Shown here one piece after another: positions 8,345-47,800 of a stretch of 64,000 nucleotides of DNA. The stretch is from positions 12,338,001 to 12,402,000 of the forward strand of contig NC_047025.1 in assembly GCF_902652985.1 (NCBI RefSeq), in the 5' to 3' direction. Numbering within the stretch: position 1 is the stretch's first letter; each line of letters begins with the position of its first letter. The notes beneath the pieces were generated by a model. It ran no database searches, was not told the DNA's origin, and saw only the letters and a list, made by a program, of their open reading frames with translations. This DNA is from Pecten maximus (lineage: Eukaryota). A program made the position numbers and the translations under genes.

Positions 8345-11300
8345 ATGTTGAAACGCCTTCTTTTCAGTAATAACATCAGACGACAACTTGGCATCAGGAT
8401 GGCATCAACTTCATCTCAGAAATTAGCAGGAAAAGTCGCCATTGTAACAGCGTCTACAGACGGGTAATATATTTATAATTGAGACAATGTCGGGACAATG
8501 ACATACTCACTGATACAACAGACTCATTAATACATTGTACATTATTAGAACTGATTATGTGTCCAGTATGTATAAACTGTGACTGTTTATAATGATATAC
8601 AAATGTAAATGTTCTAATGTACAAGGTAAATACAAATATAGCCGATAAAATTACACTTCAAATACTGTTGCAGTTCAATGATACATTGTACAAGTGTATG
8701 TGTGTGATGTATCGGATATTTCCTGCAGCCTTTTTTTTTTATCTCTGCAGTTGCAGTGTGCATGTGTACATTAATTGTAGGCTAATAGTTGAAAAGAAGC
8801 TGCATCCAGTGTCAAAAGAGGAGTTTCCTTAAAATGAAAGAATGGACATTTTCTGCGTGTGTACCCTAGAGAATCAGTAATTTTCTTCCATGTCTCCTAT
8901 TTAGGTAGCCTGAGTTTTCTCTGGCCCTGTCACCATGTCTGTATATGAAAACGTGTAATTATCTTTGTTTTGAGGGGTTTAACATCCTTGGAACAGCTAG
9001 GTGCATGTAAGGACAGGTGTCACGGGGACACCTTGAATCAGAAAACAAAGCACAGAAAGACATACTAGACAGGATACAAAGGAAATATTTGAGAAAATTT
9101 TGCAACGGGGGCAGAAGACCTACACTTGTATTTCGGTCTCTCCTATGTACCCTAAATAGTAGCCCGAGTTTTCTCTGGCCCTCAGTCACCCTGTCTGGTG
9201 TAGGGCCAGAGCGAACTACTATATGAAAACGTGGAAATTATCCGACACCGTTTGGTGTCGCTAAAAATTTGGTGCAAATACAATAAAATCGGGTGTGACA
9301 TAACACCTACCTTACATATATGGATAAATATTTACATTTTGGTGGCAAAGCCACGATATAAACTAAGTGAAAAGATTTGCAGTCTATGTGACCATAATTG
9401 ACACCCAAAACGTGACATCAATCCATGCCGCGCATGAATATATTCACCCACCGGAACTACTTGTATCTAACGTTAATCATTTTTTATGTTAATTAAAAAG
9501 TATCAAAAAGACATTTTATACAATATTGTTACACAAATAATAAAAAAAATTTGAACAGACTGTGTTTTTTCGGCATAGCCGTCTAATTTTGTTTTGGCCC
9601 TGGATATGACGCGACAGGTGGCGTTTCTGTCAAGATGAAGTACGTGATTGGTCAATGTAGCAGTCAATGCAAAATGCAGATATACAGTTTAAAACAAAAC
9701 AAAGTTAAAGGGACCTCACGGTAAACCAATGTTTATTTTGTATTTTCTATCATATTATTGGGTATATCTTTTAAAAAAATAACCTTCTGAACAATAACCA
9801 TTTGATGATGTATGTACATAAAAACATCAATTATCAATTATTAAAAGGCTATCACTCTGAATATGCAAATTTTGTGACATATACGATAAACGCATGCGCA
9901 CAACAAACTAAAACACATGGAAACAAAAATGGCTTCCATTGTGAATCGACTGCGGTTGGAAACGATAACAGCTTCCGCAATGAAGGGAATAATAGGGAAA
10001 TGGGTCAAACACAATCCTAGAATTAAACTTGGGAAGCAGTACAATAGATTGTAACAGTTCAAACATGAAAACAGCAGTAATACGGCCGCCGCTCGTATTC
10101 TGCTTGATTGTTTGATAGTAGGTCATGACAATCTCGGTAGGCTAGTATTTACACAAACTCTGTAATATTAACACAAACTCTGTAATAGTACCACAAGCTC
10201 GGTAATATTTACACAGTCTGTACCAGTACATCGCTACTGTCACTATACTATATGAACAGTGTTTACACTTATTTACACATAAATATATGTGCCGTAATAT
10301 ATACAGAACGTTTTATTTAACATTTAAACCACTGTATAATATCGTTATCCAACGAACCCAGACAGAATATAGATATCATATCGCCTTGTAAACTATCGTC
10401 TGTTTGTGTTGCCACGATTTCAAAACAGTCATGTAATAATTTAAAAATAATTTCCGCGCTAAATTAAGAGGGGGATTCCCAACTAAATCGAGTGGTCAAG
10501 CTGGACATAGGGATTGACTGTAAACATTGGGACAGCACAGAAACATAACTGGAAAGGAACAAAACGTGTACATTCAGTGAAAATTGCAACGTTTATCTTG
10601 ATGTCCCTTTTAAATTGAATGCAAGCTGAATAAGTGGATGCATCTATTCAAATGACACATTTGCAGTCCTATTATCACCAAAAATGATTCAAACTGATAT
10701 AATTTTGTTATCCGTGCTGAAACTGCGTATTTATTAATTAAAATGTAGTTCATTAATTTATTTCACCAGTAGTTTTACATTATAACCACCAGCATTAAAA
10801 CTATGCCGTTTATCTTTTTTAAAGATATTTCTTGTTTCGTATTATTTCAATGCACTTTTTTGTTTGCCAATCTGCGCGTGACAGATGAATTTTGAAAAAA
10901 TAGGCTGTTCTATTTGTCGAACCCCATTGACAAAATTGCTGAATATTGGCATTTTTTATGCTAACCCAATTTTAATTTTCAAAAATAACAAAACGAATAT
11001 GTCGAGAATGTAAATATTTATTTACCCCAGAACACCAATTTAGTCCCATCTAGATATTTTATTCCGTCCGTATAGACCCTTGCTTTACACTAGTCAAAAT
11101 TTCATACTTGACTCGACGCCATATTGCTAATTATGTAGGTCGCGGGCGGCCTAATTACCCTAATCAAAGCGCGATGGAGCGAAAAGGAAAAATTATACAA
11201 TATTTATTTTTATATATTTTACAACTTATAATTCATAAATAATGAATTTTTGAATTTAATATAACAGGTTTTGGGAAATAATAAGCTTAGTTTTCTTAAT

Positions 11301-14300
11301 TTAAACTATGCAAGAAGAAAAACACAATAAATCATATGTGGTCTTTTCGGTCCATTGCGTTCCGCTTCGGGTGGTTAGTCGTATTGTCACCTATAAAAAT
11401 GGCGGGTCAACAGTACGAAATTTTGACTAGCGTTAAGCGAGGGTCTATACGGACGGAATAAAACGATCTAGATGGTACTAAATTGGTGTTCTGGGGTAAA
11501 TATATTGTATTTGCACCAAATTCTTAGCGACACCAAACGGTGTTGGATAATTCCACGTTTTCATATAGTAGTTGACTCTGGCCCTACACCAGACAGGGTG
11601 ACTGAGGGCCAGAGAAAACTTGGGCTACTATTTAGGGTACATAGGAGAGACCGAAATACAAGTGTAGGTCTTCTGCCCTCGTTGCAAAACTTTCTCAAAT
11701 ATTTCCTTTGTATCCTGTCTAGTATGTCTTTCTGTGCTTTGTTTTCTGATTCAAGGTGTCCCCGTGACACCTGTCCTTACATGCTCCTAGCTGTTCCAAG
11801 GATGCTAAACCCCTCAAAACAAAGCAAACAACTAGCAGTTACCACATAGAGTAACTATTAGGCCTTATATATAATCACTATCACATATTTTATTTTCTAC
11901 ATAAAATGTACTTCAGGATAGGCTACGCCATCGCTGAAAGGCTTGGACAGGATGGAGCAAAAGTGGTGGTTAGCAGCAGGAAACAGAAAAATGTAGATAC
12001 AGCAATAGAAAAATTAAGGGCCAAAAATCTTGATGTGTATGGTACAGTATGCCATGTAGGGAAAAAGGAAGATAGAGCCAGTCTTATCAAACAGGTAATT
12101 ACTATCCTGGGTACGGAGACACCATATCTAGACTAAATGAAATTAATTACTTGATTCTCAGGCCAATTTTGGTAAAAAGAGCTGAGGAAGGGAATTATTT
12201 TTTTTTATAATTCTATTGTTGAAAATGCAGATAATTTTTTTCGTTTTGTTTTTTTTTTCAAAACAATCATTATCCATTTTCATATTCCAGGTAAACTTCT
12301 TCAAAATGTGGGAAACAATGATATATAACAGTACTTTGTCTTAGTTTCATATTAATGAACACGTTATATTGTTAAATGTAATGCATATTACAAGATTAAT
12401 GTTGGTGATGTTTTTTTCCACACATTCTTTTCCCAAATTTCCAACCAGGAAAATTATATGAGATGAGGGTCGTTTTCACTTCAGAGCAGATGAGGGAGAG
12501 TCTTAGAACCAAATTTTTTTTTTTTTTTTTTTTGCCTTATCCGCAAGTAAACCTTATAAAATCTTATATGGGTCTGTAAAATGGACAGGGATATCTTTGA
12601 ACCACAGTGTATAAATTTGGCTGTTCAGCACCAGACGAGCAATATGATATCTCTGTCCACAGAACATACAAATGTACACGTTTGATTTTTTTTTTCCCTT
12701 CACATAATCATCGAAAAACAAAATTCTAGACATATATATGTAAATATTTAATTTGTCTTCTAAAACACAGAAATCCTTGCGCTGAGAAGGAATTCCCAAT
12801 TCACAACGATACAATGAATTCATGTCACTATTTCATTATGACATGACGTCATAGTGTGTGTCACCTGTCTCACACCTGTCTTTACCTGCCCTGGTAGACA
12901 GATTTTTCTTCCCTAGCAACCAGGGGATCACATGTGAAGGGCGGGAGAAATTAAAAACTTTGTCTGTTTTATGGATCAAATCTCTTAAAGACTTTGGTAG
13001 GGATATGATAGTTTAATAAATGGTGCATGGTAGGAATGTGATATTTTTATAAATGGTGTAGACTAACATTTGATATATAAAACCTTGTGGTGTAATATAT
13101 TCTCTTTTTCCAGACCCTGGACCAGTACGGTGGAATTGATATTGTGGTGTCTAATGCAGCTGTAAACCCATTCTTCGGTCCAACGTTAGATGTAAATATC
13201 CTCTAGATTATAATATCTGAGCTTAAATTACCGATATAACATTCAATTAGCTTAACGATAGTTTTGAACAACCAAGTACAGCTCTGAAGTGTTAAGATTT
13301 CATTTTAGATTGCTTGAATTCATTTATGTTAATTCTAGACTTTTGTCTTTTTAAAAATCTGTGATATAAGTTAATATCTCTTTTTCTCAAAATAAAAATC
13401 TAAGAAAAAAATCTTCAGTTGTATTAAATTTTGACCTGAATCATATTATTTCAAATTATAAACAACATTATTATACAGTGAGAAGAATATCAAAATAAAT
13501 TTCATCATTAATTTTTCAGTGCTCAGAAGAACAATGGGATAAGGTAAGTCTAAAATTGGAGTTTATATAAAGGAATGAAATTGTTATCAGATGCAATATT
13601 GAATTGATTGAATATTTTATTGTGATAAGTTAATTTGTCATTATTTAGGTTTGTTTTTATTACAGATATTTGATTTGAATGTAAAGGCAACATTTATGAT
13701 GATCAAGGAGACAGTTCCCCATATACAAACCAGAGGGTATGTTGGCTTGACAAGAATACCAAAGTTGAATTTCATTTCATTTGAGTTTAGCAATGTTATG
13801 TTTAATTTCAAAAAAAATTAACCTAATATGCCTCATGCAGTAACAATACTTCACATTCCAACAATCACATATTTTATTTCACACATTCATCTTCTCATAG
13901 CAACATCTCTAATCTTATTTCACATATGTATCATCATATAGCGTACCCTACTTAACATAATTACTGTCACATTTAGATTTCACACACTGCTCTTCACATA
14001 ACTTAACTACTTGTGCCTTACTTTACAATGCAAACTTCCCATGTCAGATTTTACATATTATTCTTCACATATTGCTTCACATAGCAACCTTCAGCACATA
14101 TCAACCTTCACATATTTTCTATTTCACATAACTTACACATAGGTACTGTACACTGTAGTTCTTAACAACTTTCTTCTTCCTGATGTCTCCCTTGACAATG
14201 CCTCACTTTTGGTCTTTAGTTGAGCGTTCGCTGCTGTGAGGAAGGCTTTGGGTTCTGTCCCCTAGCCGAGACATACCAAAGTCTTTAAAAATGGTAGTTG

Positions 14301-25914: not shown

Positions 25915-27519
25915 TGTATTGGCAAAGACGTATCATAATCACAAATTATATCAAAGCCTGTTTGTATAATACTAGTTGGAAAATTAGACATTTCTATCGA
26001 ACTTTTTAAAAATAAATTCTGTAGAATAATTCTTACACTTTATTCAATGTGCAGTAATAAGGAGGTAAATACAAAATATATAAATATCGAAAACAAAAAA
26101 CTTTTCAGCAATCAAAATTCATGATTACAGTTGGTTGCATAAATGTTCACATTGGATATGAAGACAGCTATGTGTATTTCATTTATTCAACATTATAGCA
26201 TCTAAAATAACATTGGGCCAGTTTTATTTAAATTAAAACAGAAAACAACATTGAAGTGAGATTGTGTTACATTTATTATCAATGTGCGTACGATAAGAAT
26301 CGCTTTGTGGGCCTTATCTACATATGTATCCAATAAACCGACTATGGGATTTAACTGACCTCATTTGATCCAATACTGGTAAACATGACACGGTTCCTAC
26401 CATATACTTAAATTTGCTGAACGTGACGTTTGAAGAGCGATTTTCTTCGCGTTTGGTGATGGGGAAATCTGCCGCGGATATGTACGACACTCGAATATGT
26501 AGCCTCATTTTTTTTTTGCTTGATTTGTCGTATTTCCTCAGTTATGTAATTCTTTGTTTAAACTGTAAATAAAATCTGAATATTTCTTATGTCGATATAT
26601 CTTATGCTATCAACAGACACCTTATTGCTTATTAATAAATAAACCCCATAATTTCTCATCTTGCATGCATGGCTAATACGTTCACCTGAAAATTTCATTC
26701 TCAACGGAGAAAACTACGACGTCAACAGTAATGTTTGACGCTCGAAGAGGGGAATTTCTAATTTTTAGGCAAACAGATAACTCTTACCCTGACCAGGTTG
26801 AAGACACCAAACGAGTACAAGACGCTAGCGGAGTACTTGATATGCTTTGGCATTTACTGACAAGAACTCTAGGTCATCCAGACAATTTTCTGGTATATGT
26901 TATAGCCCATGTCCTGTCATGTGTTTCATCCCGTATAGTAATTCCTGAATTATCATGAAGTATTAGTAATGGTATGCGACCGTTTAAATGCTTGAACCAA
27001 AGGTATCAATTATAATTAATGTGGTACGAATAGGCTAAGGCATTTAAGCAACTAGTTATGCATTTAGGCTGACAATTCAGGTGTCTGCATGCGCTTAAAT
27101 AAACAAAAGTACAACCCAGGTTCCAAAAATCAAAGGATCATCCAGATGTGACATACAGCCACACAGTAGTAAGAATATGTACAAATACAGCTTCAGCTTT
27201 TAACAATGTTCCACCATACTAACGTATACTGTTTGTTAAAGTAAATAAACTTAGATACTGCCAAAGTTTCCGAAAAGTAAAAGGTACTGAGTTTTAGGTC
27301 TCGTGTCCGAAAGTGGGTAGTGCTCGAACGGTGACGTCAGTAGAGCCGTCTGTTCGTAAAGATATTTGACCAATCTCTCTTCCAAATCGAATGAGTGCTG
27401 TTTAAATAGGGATTATGACGTAGATACCGCGACAGCGCCACGTCTCCCCATCACCTGACCAAAAGTTGACCCGTAGCTGGTAATCTGACCCGCGGTCGGG
27501 CTTCACCTCAACTCATGAT

Positions 27520-28516
27520 TGTAACAGAGCGCATGATTAATTAAATATAAATCACTGCCTCCGCTAGGGATCGAACCCGGGACCTCTGGCTTACTAGTCT
27601 TACGCTCAACCGATCAAGCTAAAGAGAAGATCTCTCTAGCCGAGCGGTATATTGCGGCTAGTGTTTACCAGGGTTACATACTCCCCCTCCAGGAAAGAAC
27701 TCGTCCTTGAGATTCCAGGGGTAACAGCGATGCTTTCGCAAGCAGCGATGAGTATCATTCCCGAGTCCCTACATGGGCGCCAATGTAACAGAGCGCATGA
27801 TTAATTAAATATAAATCACTGCCTCCGCTAGGGATCGAACCCGGGACCTCTGGCTTACTAGTCTTACGCTCAACCGATCAAGCTAAAGAGAAGATCTCTC
27901 TAGCCGAGCGGTATATTGCGGCTAGTATTTACCAGGGTTACATACTCCCCCTCCAGGAAAGAACTCGTCCTCGAGTTTCCAGGGGTAACAGCGATGCTTT
28001 CGCAAGCAGCGATGAGTATCATTCCCGAGGCCCCACGTTGGGCGCCATTTGTAACCCTTCTAGCTCGGCGATACAACTCGACACGAGTTTATGGTTTCAA
28101 TGTGTTTATTATCTATATATATATATGAACCTGCAATAAAAGATACGAAACTATCACTTAATATATATGTACAGGTGTAGTTTCGGTTTCTATTTATAGC
28201 ATGGTATATTTAAAAATGCATTTAGACGGAGCTACTGTTATACAGTTATATGATTAGTATACAGGTACTTACCAGCGACCGGAGAGGAAGGCAATACTGT
28301 GACCATATAGAATATATCTATGCAGGAGCTCCGTCCTGCTTCGCAGCGAAGTGCTAAGTGCTAAGTGAATGGGACATACAGGGTAGACAGGGTGGTGATG
28401 TGTGCAGGTGGAATCACGTGCAACTCGCTCACGACACGATATACCCGTGGTGACACGGGTACATCCAAAACAGCACAAACAAGTGTGACTTAGTGCAATG
28501 AGTACACCCTGTTACA
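27520..28516 (-). mobile_element. Tandem miniature LTR retrotransposon (TRIM): long LTR - PBS - PPT - short tRNA-containing LTR - PBS - PPT - short LTR, with 4-bp TSD TGAT
   Basis: LTRs bounded by TGTAAC...GTTACA at 27520-27678, 27784-27942 (159 bp each) and 28050-28516 (467 bp, different sequence). PBS TGGCGCCCAACGTGGGGC (tRNA-Lys type) at 28030-28047(-) and a degenerate PBS at ~27766-27782. PPT GGAGGGGGAGTA at 27679-27690 and 27943-27954. TGAT at 27516-27519 and 28517-28520. Confidence 0.9.
27556..27627 (-). other. tRNA-Thr(AGT)-like segment within the short LTR (second copy at 27820-27891); not a functional tRNA
   Basis: TCTCTTTAGCTTGATCGGTTGAGCGTAAGACTAGTAAGCCAGAGGTCCCGGGTTCGATCCCTAGCGGAGGCA has A and B boxes and a CTAGTAA anticodon loop, but the anticodon stem does not pair. 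Confidence 0.75.
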
Positions 28517-28660
28517 TGATAATTAATTGAAATGGGATATACGATCTAATAATGTTATTCTTTATAGTTAACAAAAGGTCTTGTCATTCCCCGGGACATT
28601 GTCCACTTAGACTAGTACACAATACAACCACTTGGCGTTAGATTGCCAGTTGATATGCCT

Positions 28661-29746
28661 AACTTCCATCGGGTCCGCGGTAGCGTGGTTACAATACTAC
28701 GGAATATGGTGACGCTCACCGTGCAGTTCTGACGTCACTTCTAGAGATGCTAGGAAGTTCGGATCTGTTTGGGCACCTCCAGTGGGATTACTCCAACAAT
28801 GTTAGAGGTTTTACACGGCGAGATACTTTTGACAGGCGCCGTGTAACCTCTAACTGCCCATAGCTGATTTTCCCGATGCTGACGATGAAATTTTCAAAGT
28901 TCGTATATTGAAAAAAACATAGCGTGTCAACTTACATTTAAATGATCCACAGGGTCCAATATATATTTCTTTCCATAATCGAATGATTAAATGAGAATAA
29001 TTTCGTAAAAAAACACAAATTATGAAGTTTTCTTCTTCCGAAGCGGAGCAGAGCTCAAGCAGACAATACTGTCGGTAGTGATAGTAGAAATACCACGTGA
29101 TTTGTCGGTTAATACAAAAATGGATTACAATCTCTGTCCTACAAGCGGAATACAACAAAGTCCGTATCATTTCGCTCTGTTTGAAATAACGACACCTATT
29201 TTGCATCAACCTTTAGGCAGCCATTTTTAAAAACGACTAGAAAAGTGCTACAACGACATGGGCATGTATTTTGTGTGTTATACACCGTATTATACTATAT
29301 ATTTGTGTCTGTGACATACATATGGGATAAATATTGCATACATGATACGTAGACATCGTTGTAATGACCTGTCAACCTCTTAAGATTTTTTTTCAAGCAT
29401 ATTTAGTTCCGCCCGGATTTCGGGCGGAAACTGCATCAAATAATTAGTGCTTCGGAAATAAGAGGTCGCAGTCGGCAAAATAATATCCGATAGAAAAAGA
29501 GCCGACCAGCGGCCTCTTATGTTATAGGAGTACAGTGGGATGTGATAAACAGGAAAACCTGCTCATTCCGGCCAAACTTCCATCGGTGAACAATACACCG
29601 CAGGTCCGCGGTAGCGTGGTGACAATACTACGGAATATGGTGACGCTCACCGTGAAGTTCTGACGTCATGTCTAGCGCTGCTAGGAGGTTCGGATCTTTT
29701 TGGGCACCTCCAGTGGGATTTGATAAACAGGAAAACCTGCTCATTC
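28661..29746 (+). repeat. Interrupted direct repeat (28661-28789 ~ 29575-29720; 29533-29568 ~ 29711-29746), remnant of ~178-bp tandem units
   Basis: Shared GGTCCGCGGTAGCGTGG..CTACGGAATATGGTGACGCTCACCGTG..GGGCACCTCCAGTGGGATT. Confidence 0.75.
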
Positions 29747-44880: not shown

Positions 44881-47800
44881 CGCCGAAAATTGAATCTGTG
44901 ATAGGATCGTTGATATCCATCCAAACTCACTTTTGATACAACATCTATGTATGATCTGTCGGTCCAAGTCCATCATCGATAGAAGAAAGAGAGAAAATGT
45001 CAAATGAATCTTTTTGACCATCATATATAATATTAAATTTTAATATACATTTATATATATGTAAAAATATACCTCCTCTCGGAGCCAGGGTCATATACTT
45101 AGGTTTCATTGCTTCTTGCACGTATCTTGTGTATCTCATTGTGCTTATAAACGGCATTTGTCGACATTTTTGTGTTAATGGTATATTTACCTTGTATATT
45201 TTCTTTGTTTTCCCAAACAATATCGTACCTAGCACGGTACGGAAAACGTTATTGTATAGTAGCTAACTATACTTTTTTTACTGTGGTACATTTTGGTATA
45301 TTGTTTTTCTTAATTTTCGATTATCTCTAGTTGTACGTTTTTCACATTTTATGAAATATATACTTTGTCCATATATATATATTTTTTTGGAAGTGTGTTT
45401 CTAATTTTAAATTTGTCGTATTCTATTAACATTCTTTTATATTTGATATCAATTCTTTTTTTGAAATCAATAATTCAAGATCCAAGCAATTTATTCATGA
45501 TAGTTTTGAGCTCGTCGACTTTGACGAAAATCACAGTTCTTTGCTTAATATGATGTACTAGCTGATTCATGTAGTACACAGTAACAGCAATAATAAATAT
45601 ATTTTAAGAAAATCACATGACTGTTTTAATTACTTGATAATTAAAGGACTGTCACTTGGGTCGCTATGTAATACCTGAGACAGATACAGGTTCTTTGACT
45701 TTATTCTCGTGGGAAAAATACAAATATAACAAACAAAACATTAACAAACTGAAACAAACTATAACACTACTGACGCACACTTAATCGTTTCACGCTTTTC
45801 GCTCCAATGTACACAAACGCATACTTGTAACTTACCAGACCTCCTACCGGCGGTATCCAGCGCCCATGACAGGGTTACAAGACAATCCCGACCTCTAGAT
45901 ACTTACTGGGATCATAGAGCAGCCGCTACTCATACACGTGCTCTCGCGAGCACGATCCGTCGAATGTCAAGGTCAAAGTCGACTGTTAACATACTGTCAG
46001 TCGTCCTCTGTCCGTTAGCCATTTTGTTTCGGAAATTTTCCCATGATCCAGAAGACCATATTTAACTTTCCAAAATCTTGCATGCTGATAATCTTTAGTA
46101 TGCAATAGTGATTTTAAAATAAAATAAAATTCGTAAGGTATCGTTCATTGTTAAAGGATGAAAGTCATACTAAAAAAGGCTCTCTACAAGATACCTCATA
46201 AACCCCTCATCCATTTAGTTACTATAGTTTCATAACATCTAATTTATGTAACCCTCAAGTAAGTTAAGATCAGAGACAGATACAAAGATTGCCCCTCTCT
46301 GACATGTCAGTAATCTAGTTTGCCCCAGGAAGGCGACAGTGTATTGCCTACACCGAGCATAATATTCAACACACTGATTTGATCTACTAACGTTTTTTAC
46401 CGAAAGTCATTAAGCGCTCGAGAGCCGCCAATAGACATATATTTACATGTACATTTTACTTGTATGCGCATAACGATGCGTGACACATATGCATATGATC
46501 CTTAGGGATAGAAATGTAAAGTGGTCTCGATAGATTTTTGTCTATTCACACACATACTCTGGTTGGATATGATTGTATACGGTTGGCTATAGCCATTACT
46601 TCACATTATATTCACTAAGACGCAGGTTACGTCCCTATGCAGTGTACCACTTGACAGACTGTATTACATTTAGTGGATGTATCATCACACTCGTCGGACA
46701 AGGTAAGTGTGCTTTTCCTTTCACAATGCGACTGTAATGTGGTGAGCTAGCAACTGCCTTTACCTCTCTGGTTGTATTGAACAGTCACATCCTAGGGTGG
46801 GGATGAGGGAAATGGCGTAAAGTCCATGAATTAATGATAGTGGTGATTACATCATAGTTTGCCTGCTGTCAAGTGCAAATGCACCGAGCTGGATAATAAT
46901 TCGATTTGAATTCTACTTAAATTTGAATTCAAAGTCAAGGTGAAATCTTTGTGATTGCATCATAGATTACCATCTGCCAAGTGCTAATTAATCGATCTCG
47001 GGAACAATGAAACTTCGGCAACAGCGAACTATATATTTCCTGTTTACCTGCAGACAGTTGCATTTTTTTAATTTAATTTTTCTTTCTTTTAAATGGATCT
47101 GCGGTTGAATAGGTAATTCCTATTTCTTACTCCGTTCATAGCAAATAAACGGATAAGAACAACAATAAGATCAATTTCTGTGATATTGGAGTTAATGTAG
47201 CCTTCATGAGGCAAACCAGTGAATATGTGTCAATCACGTAAGGTAGCGATAAGGCCCACACAGGAAATCAGTCGCCATAGCGTAGCGTATATACAGTGTT
47301 AAGTATCCTTAAACTGTTGGAATTTGAATACTCGTAGTCGTGAGATATCGGAATTGATTGAGAGGTTTAGTTTGAGCTTCCTCGTTCCTTGGACGTATCT
47401 TTTACAAACAATTATATATTACATAATGAACTTTCAATCGACCCAAAAGACACAAAAATAAAAGCTTTTTGAATACAAAATGAGAGCTAGATACAGATGG
47501 AATTACTCATGCTGTTTTCCATCCTTTATATATTCTATATATGCCTTAGACATGAGTTTGTGCTCATAATGTCGTTATTTTGAAATTAGATGTATGTATT
47601 GAATCCAGCAAGAAGCTATCATAAGTAATTAGAATTGAATAAAACAATACAGTTTAATTATGAATGTCATAATTGATGCTGTTTCTCGAAACGCTGCACC
47701 ACGATACAGCTCGGCACGTTAAGGGCATGAAGTGTTGGTAACATATTTTTTTTATTTTTTTTTTCCAATTTGTACTATAAATACATGATGCCTTTCTGAT

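Follow-up and report, generated by a model that had tools for sequence, protein, structure and literature searches.

The window analysed here is a stretch of 64,000 nt of Pecten maximus contig NC_047025.1 (12,338,001-12,402,000; GCF_902652985.1), and all positions given refer to it. Re-reading the sequence, we confirmed an earlier claim, made from the letters alone, that a 997-bp unit is bounded by TGAT on both sides (27516-27519 and 28517-28520). On the minus strand, the order is ATCA, a 467-bp LTR, AA, an 18-nt PBS, C and a Helenus internal part with a PPT, and then, up to the closing ATCA, a short LTR (159 bp), the spacer T, another PBS and internal part, and another LTR of 159 bp. The features are as follows.

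27516-27519, no strand: target-site duplication (TSD), left copy TGAT (ATCA in the sense of the element); one copy only in the empty site
27520-27678, minus strand: 3' short Helenus-1_PeMa LTR, 159 bp; three differences from the published LTR, by eye
27679-27783, minus strand: inner Helenus internal part, 105 bp (spacer T, PBS, PPT at 27681-27690); two differences from the published sequence
27765-27782, minus strand: inner PBS; exact 18-nt complement of the 3' end of host tRNA-Lys(TTT) plus CCA
27784-27942, minus strand: middle short Helenus LTR, 159 bp; one difference from the 3' LTR
27943-28028, minus strand: outer Helenus internal part downstream of the PBS, with PPT at 27945-27954; matches published Helenus
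28029-28049, minus strand: hybrid junction; AA spacer at 28048-28049, exact 18-nt complement of tRNA-Lys(CTT) at 28030-28047, extra C at 28029
28050-28516, minus strand: LTR of an autonomous Ty3/Gypsy family, 467 bp; 97-99% identical to the best other copies
28105-28110, minus strand: AATAAA, probable poly(A) signal of the Gypsy LTR, to judge from the sequence
28131-28272, minus strand: GT-AG intron inside the Gypsy LTR, 142 nt; precisely absent in L039 and L040
28517-28520, no strand: TSD, right copy TGAT; supported by the sequence and by the empty site

ATCA and TGAT each make up about 0.7% of the 4-mers in the window, which is the chance level for a TSD match. The sequence-only reading had called for an empty-site allele with a single TGAT, and public run X1 contains one: in a 127-nt contig (depth 15.7) with one TGAT, 31 letters of the left flank run directly into 28515-28610, and the whole 997 bp is absent. 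Among the contigs of four public runs at this site, the empty allele was seen in X1 alone; X4, X5 and X16 have no contig over 28515-28563, and are hence silent. No filled-junction contig was seen in the four runs, the filled allele being known from the assembly alone, and a comparison of the four runs with 26600-29400, which was swamped by repeat contigs, gave no joint spanning the insertion among the matches listed. Since the X1 allele lacks the 997 bp, the unit reflects one event and the insertion is polymorphic. We conclude that it is a real, single, polymorphic hybrid insertion, which joins a Gypsy LTR to a dimer of the Helenus-1 TRIM at the PBS. There was no indication of a host function for the unit. 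Elsewhere in the window, 8963-11824 is probably a DNA transposon or MITE: its inverted arms (274 bp, 97%) are accompanied by inner inverted pairs.

The Helenus-1 dimer

The right part of the unit is a two-unit Helenus-1_PeMa TRIM, a member of a published family (Kojima 2024, PMC10886601); compared by eye, its short LTRs and internal parts show 2-3 differences each from the published sequences. The internal parts are non-coding (105 and 107 bp) and carry a PBS and a PPT. Box A and box B motifs derived from tRNA are present in both short LTRs and absent from the long LTR. In the 3' short LTR, these tRNA-Thr-like boxes lie at about 27556-27628, and ARAGORN called no tRNA there. The inner PBS, described as degenerate in the sequence-only reading, is in fact exact, and the tRNA-Lys(TTT) that it complements belongs to a gene family of the P. 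maximus genome.

The two short LTRs have two rare variants in common, which co-occur in one of 82 other fetched copies (L052). Given these shared variants and the existence of Helenus trimers with TSDs (L044, L051), a tandem Helenus template is the best explanation for the dimer. The unit has the 4-bp TSD of animal Helenus. However, it does not have the same LTR at both ends, its 5' end being an unrelated 467-bp LTR, and it is therefore a hybrid rather than a regular Helenus member.

Other Helenus loci showed further arrangements. Three ordinary Helenus-1 copies (L211, L212 and L213) have a PBS of the tRNA-Lys(CTT) type, which may represent primer switching under way. L114, L147, L162 and L107 combine Helenus with Helenus pieces in inverted orientation; the joint often lies at the PBS or LTR, which suggests that aberrant strand transfers are frequent in this family. 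At five loci (L153, L154, L155, L159 and L165), the DNA beyond a Helenus LTR and PBS is unrelated and, over 9.9 kb, matches no Gypsy protein; these loci are possibly strong-stop DNA inserted without integrase. We also observed tRNA genes in clusters: tRNA-Lys(TTT) genes stand in tandem with those for tRNA-Gln and tRNA-Arg, and matches to tRNA-Lys(CTT) are grouped as well (L080, L090, L095 and L101; L075-L079 and L084-L086).

The long LTR and its Gypsy family

The long LTR had been described as unlike the 159-bp LTRs beyond its termini, and we agree: the two have nothing in common past 8-9 terminal nt (best blastn E value 0.36). A search for its association with gag-pol and a Lys PBS, as the sequence-only reading had advised, identified it as the LTR of an autonomous Gypsy family. 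We obtained at least 47 matches to the 467-bp LTR (40 of 62 candidates scored), and all 11 stretches fetched around neighbouring matches hold two same-strand LTR matches, 4.2-8.2 kb apart. The Gypsy element that owns the LTR is about 8.7 kb long. One copy, L031, encodes in order ORF0, gag-like pieces, RT, RNase H and integrase, with Pfam matches to RVT_1, RT_RNaseH, Integrase_H2C2 and rve; the order RT, RNase H, integrase assigns the element to Ty3/Gypsy. ORF0 (L031:7025-7738, minus strand) is a conserved ORF of 237 aa upstream of gag, with 65 database relatives, the best of which is named as SGNH hydrolase-type. It also occurs in other donor families (L137, L175, L177). In Pfam, neither ORF0 nor the gag pieces had a credible family match. 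The donor resembles Ty3/Gypsy elements in its pol order, its PBS after the 5' LTR, its PPT before the 3' LTR and its 4-bp TSDs (exact in 7 of 10 paired copies), but differs in having the extra upstream ORF and an intron inside the LTR. LTR pairs have 0 differences in four of the seven elements compared, and several copies keep long open pol frames; judged by these two features of the sequence, the family is recently active.

All 15 distinct 5' junctions of this family are directly preceded by its own LTR. Thirteen consist of AA and only 12 nt complementary to tRNA-Lys(CTT); the other two are an 18-nt-like copy with one mismatch (L128) and a diverged sequence. The L128 copy indicates that the RT of this family does copy 18 nt.

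The GT-AG segment within the long LTR, noted earlier as intron-like, is a real intron, since it is missing exactly from both LTRs of two full elements (L039 and L040), and hence spliced copies exist. The AATAAA noted alongside it is also present. Introns of this kind are found in the LTRs of at least four Gypsy families (109-357 nt; two introns in one family), and precisely spliced LTR versions occur as genomic copies (L039, L040, L107, L105/L115 and L054, against L167-L177, L194-L201 and L179). Our literature search found no report of introns within Gypsy LTRs. Two further Gypsy sequences were observed. At 45834-45959 in the window, a 72% match to part of the LTR family of hybrid L107 represents an old LTR fragment. 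At G000:C17:21162675-21163616 (L009/L010), a Gypsy 3' LTR with AA and an 18-nt tRNA copy stands head-to-head with an inverted LTR of the same family, through the PBS copies; this is likely to reflect two plus-strand ends annealed to each other.

The junction

Between the long LTR and Helenus lie the spacer AA, which is of the Gypsy type (the Helenus spacer is T), 18 nt that match tRNA-Lys(CTT) at 18 of 18 positions, and one extra C. The perfect Lys-type PBS reported by the sequence-only reading is thus the exact complement of tRNA-Lys(CTT), whereas the usual Helenus PBS is of the tRNA-Lys(TTT) type, and neither usual parent has these junction letters. In retroviruses, as described in a study of HIV-1 (PMC5651808), the plus-strand strong-stop DNA finishes with 18 nt copied from the 3' end of the primer tRNA, after which it anneals at the PBS. 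Were such DNA of Gypsy origin to anneal to the minus strand of Helenus, it would yield Gypsy LTR, spacer, tRNA copy, Helenus internal part and Helenus LTR, the order observed in the unit. A breakpoint at the PBS, with the spacer of the donor and 18 tRNA-templated nt, is the pattern expected of plus-strand transfer, and is the pattern found here.

Hybrids elsewhere in the genome

We searched for further hybrids by pattern and by similarity; these searches are only partly sensitive, and the resulting 10 of 206 is hence a floor. The pattern of a PBS followed by the start of the Helenus internal part has 206 matches, 8 of them of the CTT type. In total, we identified 12 PBS junctions at which a foreign LTR is followed by a spacer, a PBS and the Helenus internal part; 10 of these fall within the 206 matches, such that at least 10 of 206 Helenus junctions are hybrid. 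The upstream LTRs belong to 10 mutually unrelated types; for 7 of these, the link to Gypsy genes is a PPT that follows integrase, or a PBS that precedes ORF0 or gag. The L116 unit itself contains an integrase piece farther on; L043 and L103 are not among the traced LTR types. The sequence-only reading had suggested that the long LTR in the window may identify the autonomous partner of the TRIM. This is not supported: LTRs of 10 unrelated families are joined to Helenus in the same way, two donor families use Helenus's own Lys-TTT PBS, and the window's long LTR marks one helper among several. Because the same accident occurred with many Gypsy families, our data suggest that several helpers package Helenus-1.

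Hybrids with one long and one short LTR and their own TSDs, which the sequence-only reading had proposed as a check, do occur. An exact 4-bp TSD flanks six of the seven units that are free of coding sequence and end in a foreign LTR on one side and a Helenus LTR on the other; L043 has no matching TSD. The hybrid TSDs are ATCA, TTTC, TTTG, TATA, TACA and CATA, of which TATA (L107) sits in low-complexity DNA. A second hybrid with the LTR family of the window's unit, L030/L104, has a different PBS, a different Helenus subtype and its own TSD (TTTC), and its LTR differs from the window's by 31 mismatches and 16 gaps. These differences indicate that it is independent of the hybrid in the window.

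A CTT-type PBS is carried by 5 of 10 hybrids and by 3 of 196 other junctions (Fisher p 4.5e-6; among the 206 junctions). Seven of the 12 hybrid junctions carry a Helenus-type PBS, and on their own these do not show tRNA copying. The spacers are those of the donor family where checked (AA, AA, TT, AAA and A), with the single exception of L105 (spacer A, donor family TT). GT-AG introns retained by most of the copies examined are missing from the hybrid LTR in three families; this loss points to an RNA stage. We make no claim that spliced LTRs are enriched among hybrids: they are spliced in these three families but apparently unspliced in the window's family, as they are, judged by eye, in several others. 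At L010, L048 and L102, a spacer and a tRNA copy follow a Gypsy 3' LTR; nothing but reverse transcription produces this order.

Other joins are more complex. At L003 (1501-2353), the window's Gypsy LTR with a 16-nt PBS copy is joined to an inverted Helenus at the tRNA-like box B; this hybrid, whose TSD is CATA, entered an older Helenus copy at its end and is counted apart from the 12 junctions. Larger co-integrates consist of Gypsy coding sequence, PPT, LTR, PBS and Helenus, with the far-5' Helenus LTR joined by 3-6 nt into gag (L102, L048); L102 has TAAA at both ends. Another shape is LTR, Helenus, Gypsy coding sequence, LTR (L111, L115). We detected no clean reciprocal (Helenus LTR, PBS, Gypsy internal part, Gypsy LTR) among 20 matches to a partly sensitive pattern. 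These 20 candidates were mostly Helenus variants or inversions, and six with unrelated downstream DNA gave no Gypsy protein match when extended to 9.9 kb.

Several candidates were dropped from the hybrid count: L106, L108, L109 and L112 are ordinary Helenus with spacer A; L113 has no LTR upstream; L114 is the Helenus-inverted Helenus join noted above; L211-L213 are ordinary Helenus with a CTT-type PBS; and L047, L049, L045, L046 and L053 are truncated or not joined at the PBS.

Origin of the hybrid

The exact TSD, the empty site, the Gypsy spacer and the 18/18 tRNA match support a reading in which the unit probably arose by intermolecular plus-strand (second) strong-stop transfer between RNAs co-packaged in a Gypsy particle. 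One particle would have reverse-transcribed both a Gypsy RNA, primed by tRNA-Lys(CTT), and a Helenus RNA, primed by tRNA-Lys(TTT). As established for retroviruses in passages of PMC5651808, plus-strand synthesis from the PPT would run through the LTR and spacer and on into 18 nt of the primer tRNA. The Gypsy plus-strand DNA may then have paired with the Helenus PBS copy instead of its own minus strand. The first 9 nt are common to both, and further pairing with a one-base shift would leave the extra C; alternatively, in-register pairing on a CTT-adapted variant like L212 or L213 could account for it. Both strands would then be completed, and integrase would take two unrelated ends, both of which read TGTAAC..GTTACA, producing the 4-bp TSD that we observe. 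The Helenus internal sequence showed no significant similarity to the Gypsy element (best E value 1.2), and no shared packaging sequence was found. The sequence-only reading had proposed a chimera made by template switching between co-packaged RNAs, or by later recombination. An origin by co-packaging and reverse transcription is still the best reading, with plus-strand transfer at the PBS likelier than copy-choice switching; later recombination is unlikely, given the exact TSD and the empty site.

A different reverse-transcription route also deserves weighing: RT on Helenus RNA could jump, at the 9 shared PBS bases, to Gypsy RNA and copy U5-R, after which the normal jump to U3 would follow and the Gypsy PPT would set the left end. 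Co-packaging would still be needed. This minus-strand jump fits the 7 of 12 junctions that have a Helenus-type PBS, and the units in which the foreign LTR is preceded by Gypsy coding sequence (L102/L135/L145 and L048/L138). CTT-adapted templates, moreover, are available: the PBS of L212 and L213 is one base off the window's junction, such that a jump between RNA templates plus one mutation could yield the same junction letters. However, the PBS letters would then come from RNA alone, and the 18th base in the window matches the tRNA and no fetched template; L052, the sole other copy with both rare short-LTR variants, has a TTT-type PBS; and a clean left end would require trimming of a minus-strand overhang. 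We therefore regard the jump as improbable for the window's unit, though the most serious competitor to plus-strand transfer. Taking the two routes together, co-packaging of the Gypsy and Helenus RNAs is very likely.

The other explanations fare worse. A composite element (Gypsy LTR, Helenus, short LTR, PBS, Gypsy, Gypsy LTR) could be transcribed and primed at its inner PBS, such that the stretch from Gypsy LTR to short LTR becomes its "LTR", and solo-LTR recombination would then leave a hybrid with a TSD. Shapes suited to be progenitors are known in other families (L111/L137, L103), but the 5' junctions of the window's Gypsy family follow its own LTR in 15 of 15 cases, PBS, Helenus subtype and LTR all differ between the two hybrids of this family, no junction is common to two hybrids, and the progenitor would itself require a PBS join; we consider this origin very doubtful. 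Equally little weight attaches to recombination or gene conversion after integration, by which a Gypsy LTR replaced the 5' LTR of a Helenus trimer or two neighbouring insertions became joined. Helenus trimers with TSDs do exist, and complex elements in plants usually stem from recombination between neighbouring elements (PMC1950507), but joined insertions leave no flanking TSD (PMC1950507), and this explanation is largely refuted by the X1 empty site. In addition, the homology available for conversion is just 6 and about 15 bp, conversion cannot make a tRNA copy absent from the donors, and neither process predicts the CTT enrichment. An assembly artefact, which the absence of the filled junction from the contig sets of four short-read runs might suggest, is least credible of all: an exact TSD stands at an exact empty site, the junction sequence is in neither parent, and 12 analogous junctions lie on several contigs.

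The hybrid tells us whose RNA was present, not whose proteins or enzymes acted. As a unit it is probably a dead end, because its two ends have no R region in common.

Discussion

The hybrid shares with Helenus-1_PeMa, as described in passages of PMC10886601, the 4-bp TSD, the Lys PBS, the tRNA-Thr-like LTR and near-identical parts, but differs in that one end is an unrelated Gypsy LTR. In that paper, dependence of Helenus on Gypsy is inferred from PBS similarity, how TRIMs depend on helpers is stated as not known, and the words "chimer" and "hybrid" are absent. Chimeras produced by template switching between co-packaged RNAs are known (PMC1950507, and passages of PMC13570524 and PMC6894440). 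Among them are the Triticeae complexes of Sabot and Schulman (2007, PMC1950507), three-LTR insertions with a single TSD that were ascribed to such switching; the same paper names VejuL and BARE2 as products of heterologous packaging. In their model, switching acts at R and the outer LTRs are identical, whereas the scallop hybrid has a single flanking TSD but outer LTRs that are unrelated rather than nearly identical, and is joined at the PBS. Intermolecular second-strand transfer in HIV-1 is similar in occurring at the PBS after 18 nt of tRNA-Lys, with a breakpoint that adjoins U5; it differs in that, according to passages of PMC5651808, transfer is generally intramolecular and the intermolecular route was inferred indirectly, between related genomes. 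By comparison, the scallop hybrids are first-generation products of unrelated elements and appear fixed in the germ line. Passages on chimeric TRIMs of sugar beet (PMC13570524) likewise describe exchange of LTRs between families and invoke template switching. However, those are TRIM-TRIM exchanges (two TRIM-08 elements with LTRs from TRIM-01 or TRIM-05), and the passages contain neither a tRNA-copied junction nor a helper assignment. Our own literature search, with subscription journals and Repbase notes outside its scope, found no report of TRIM-helper hybrids with unrelated terminal LTRs. LTR swapping between related elements was reportedly described in soybean by Du et al. in 2010. As far as our literature search goes, what is new relative to known template-switch chimeras is the PBS-joined type of TRIM-Gypsy hybrid and its use to name helpers.

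The helpers of Pol III-type TRIMs are an open question, since their LTRs share nothing with any helper (passages of PMC10886601). By sequence similarity, helpers were proposed for 11 of 289 plant TRIM subfamilies (passages of PMC4717578), and none was proposed for biv-TRIM (passages of PMC6934838); the partners of Cassandra are called unknown (PMC7215508). The value of our observations lies in the hybrid class, which names several helper families of a TRIM without shared sequence. Hybrids link a TRIM physically to specific Gypsy families, and a simple pattern search can find them in any assembly; such insertions would escape LTR finders that depend on similarity between the two ends. Recombination between unrelated, cross-packaged elements has been viewed as necessarily rare (passages of PMC6894440), and the hybrids suggest that packaging is far less selective than this view. 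They also suggest that a shared tRNA type suffices to fuse elements, and that integrase tolerates a pair of ends that are unrelated apart from short common termini.

On balance, we lean towards the view that Helenus-1 is a generalist parasite packaged by at least 7-10 unrelated Lys-primed Gypsy families, and that its PBS-joined hybrids, at least 5% of its PBS junctions, are a fossil record of co-packaging that names helpers without sequence homology. If so, transfer of this kind would also account for the tandem arrays of TRIMs and their primer switching, and a like screen would reveal which helpers serve Cassandra, Ajax and other orphan TRIMs.
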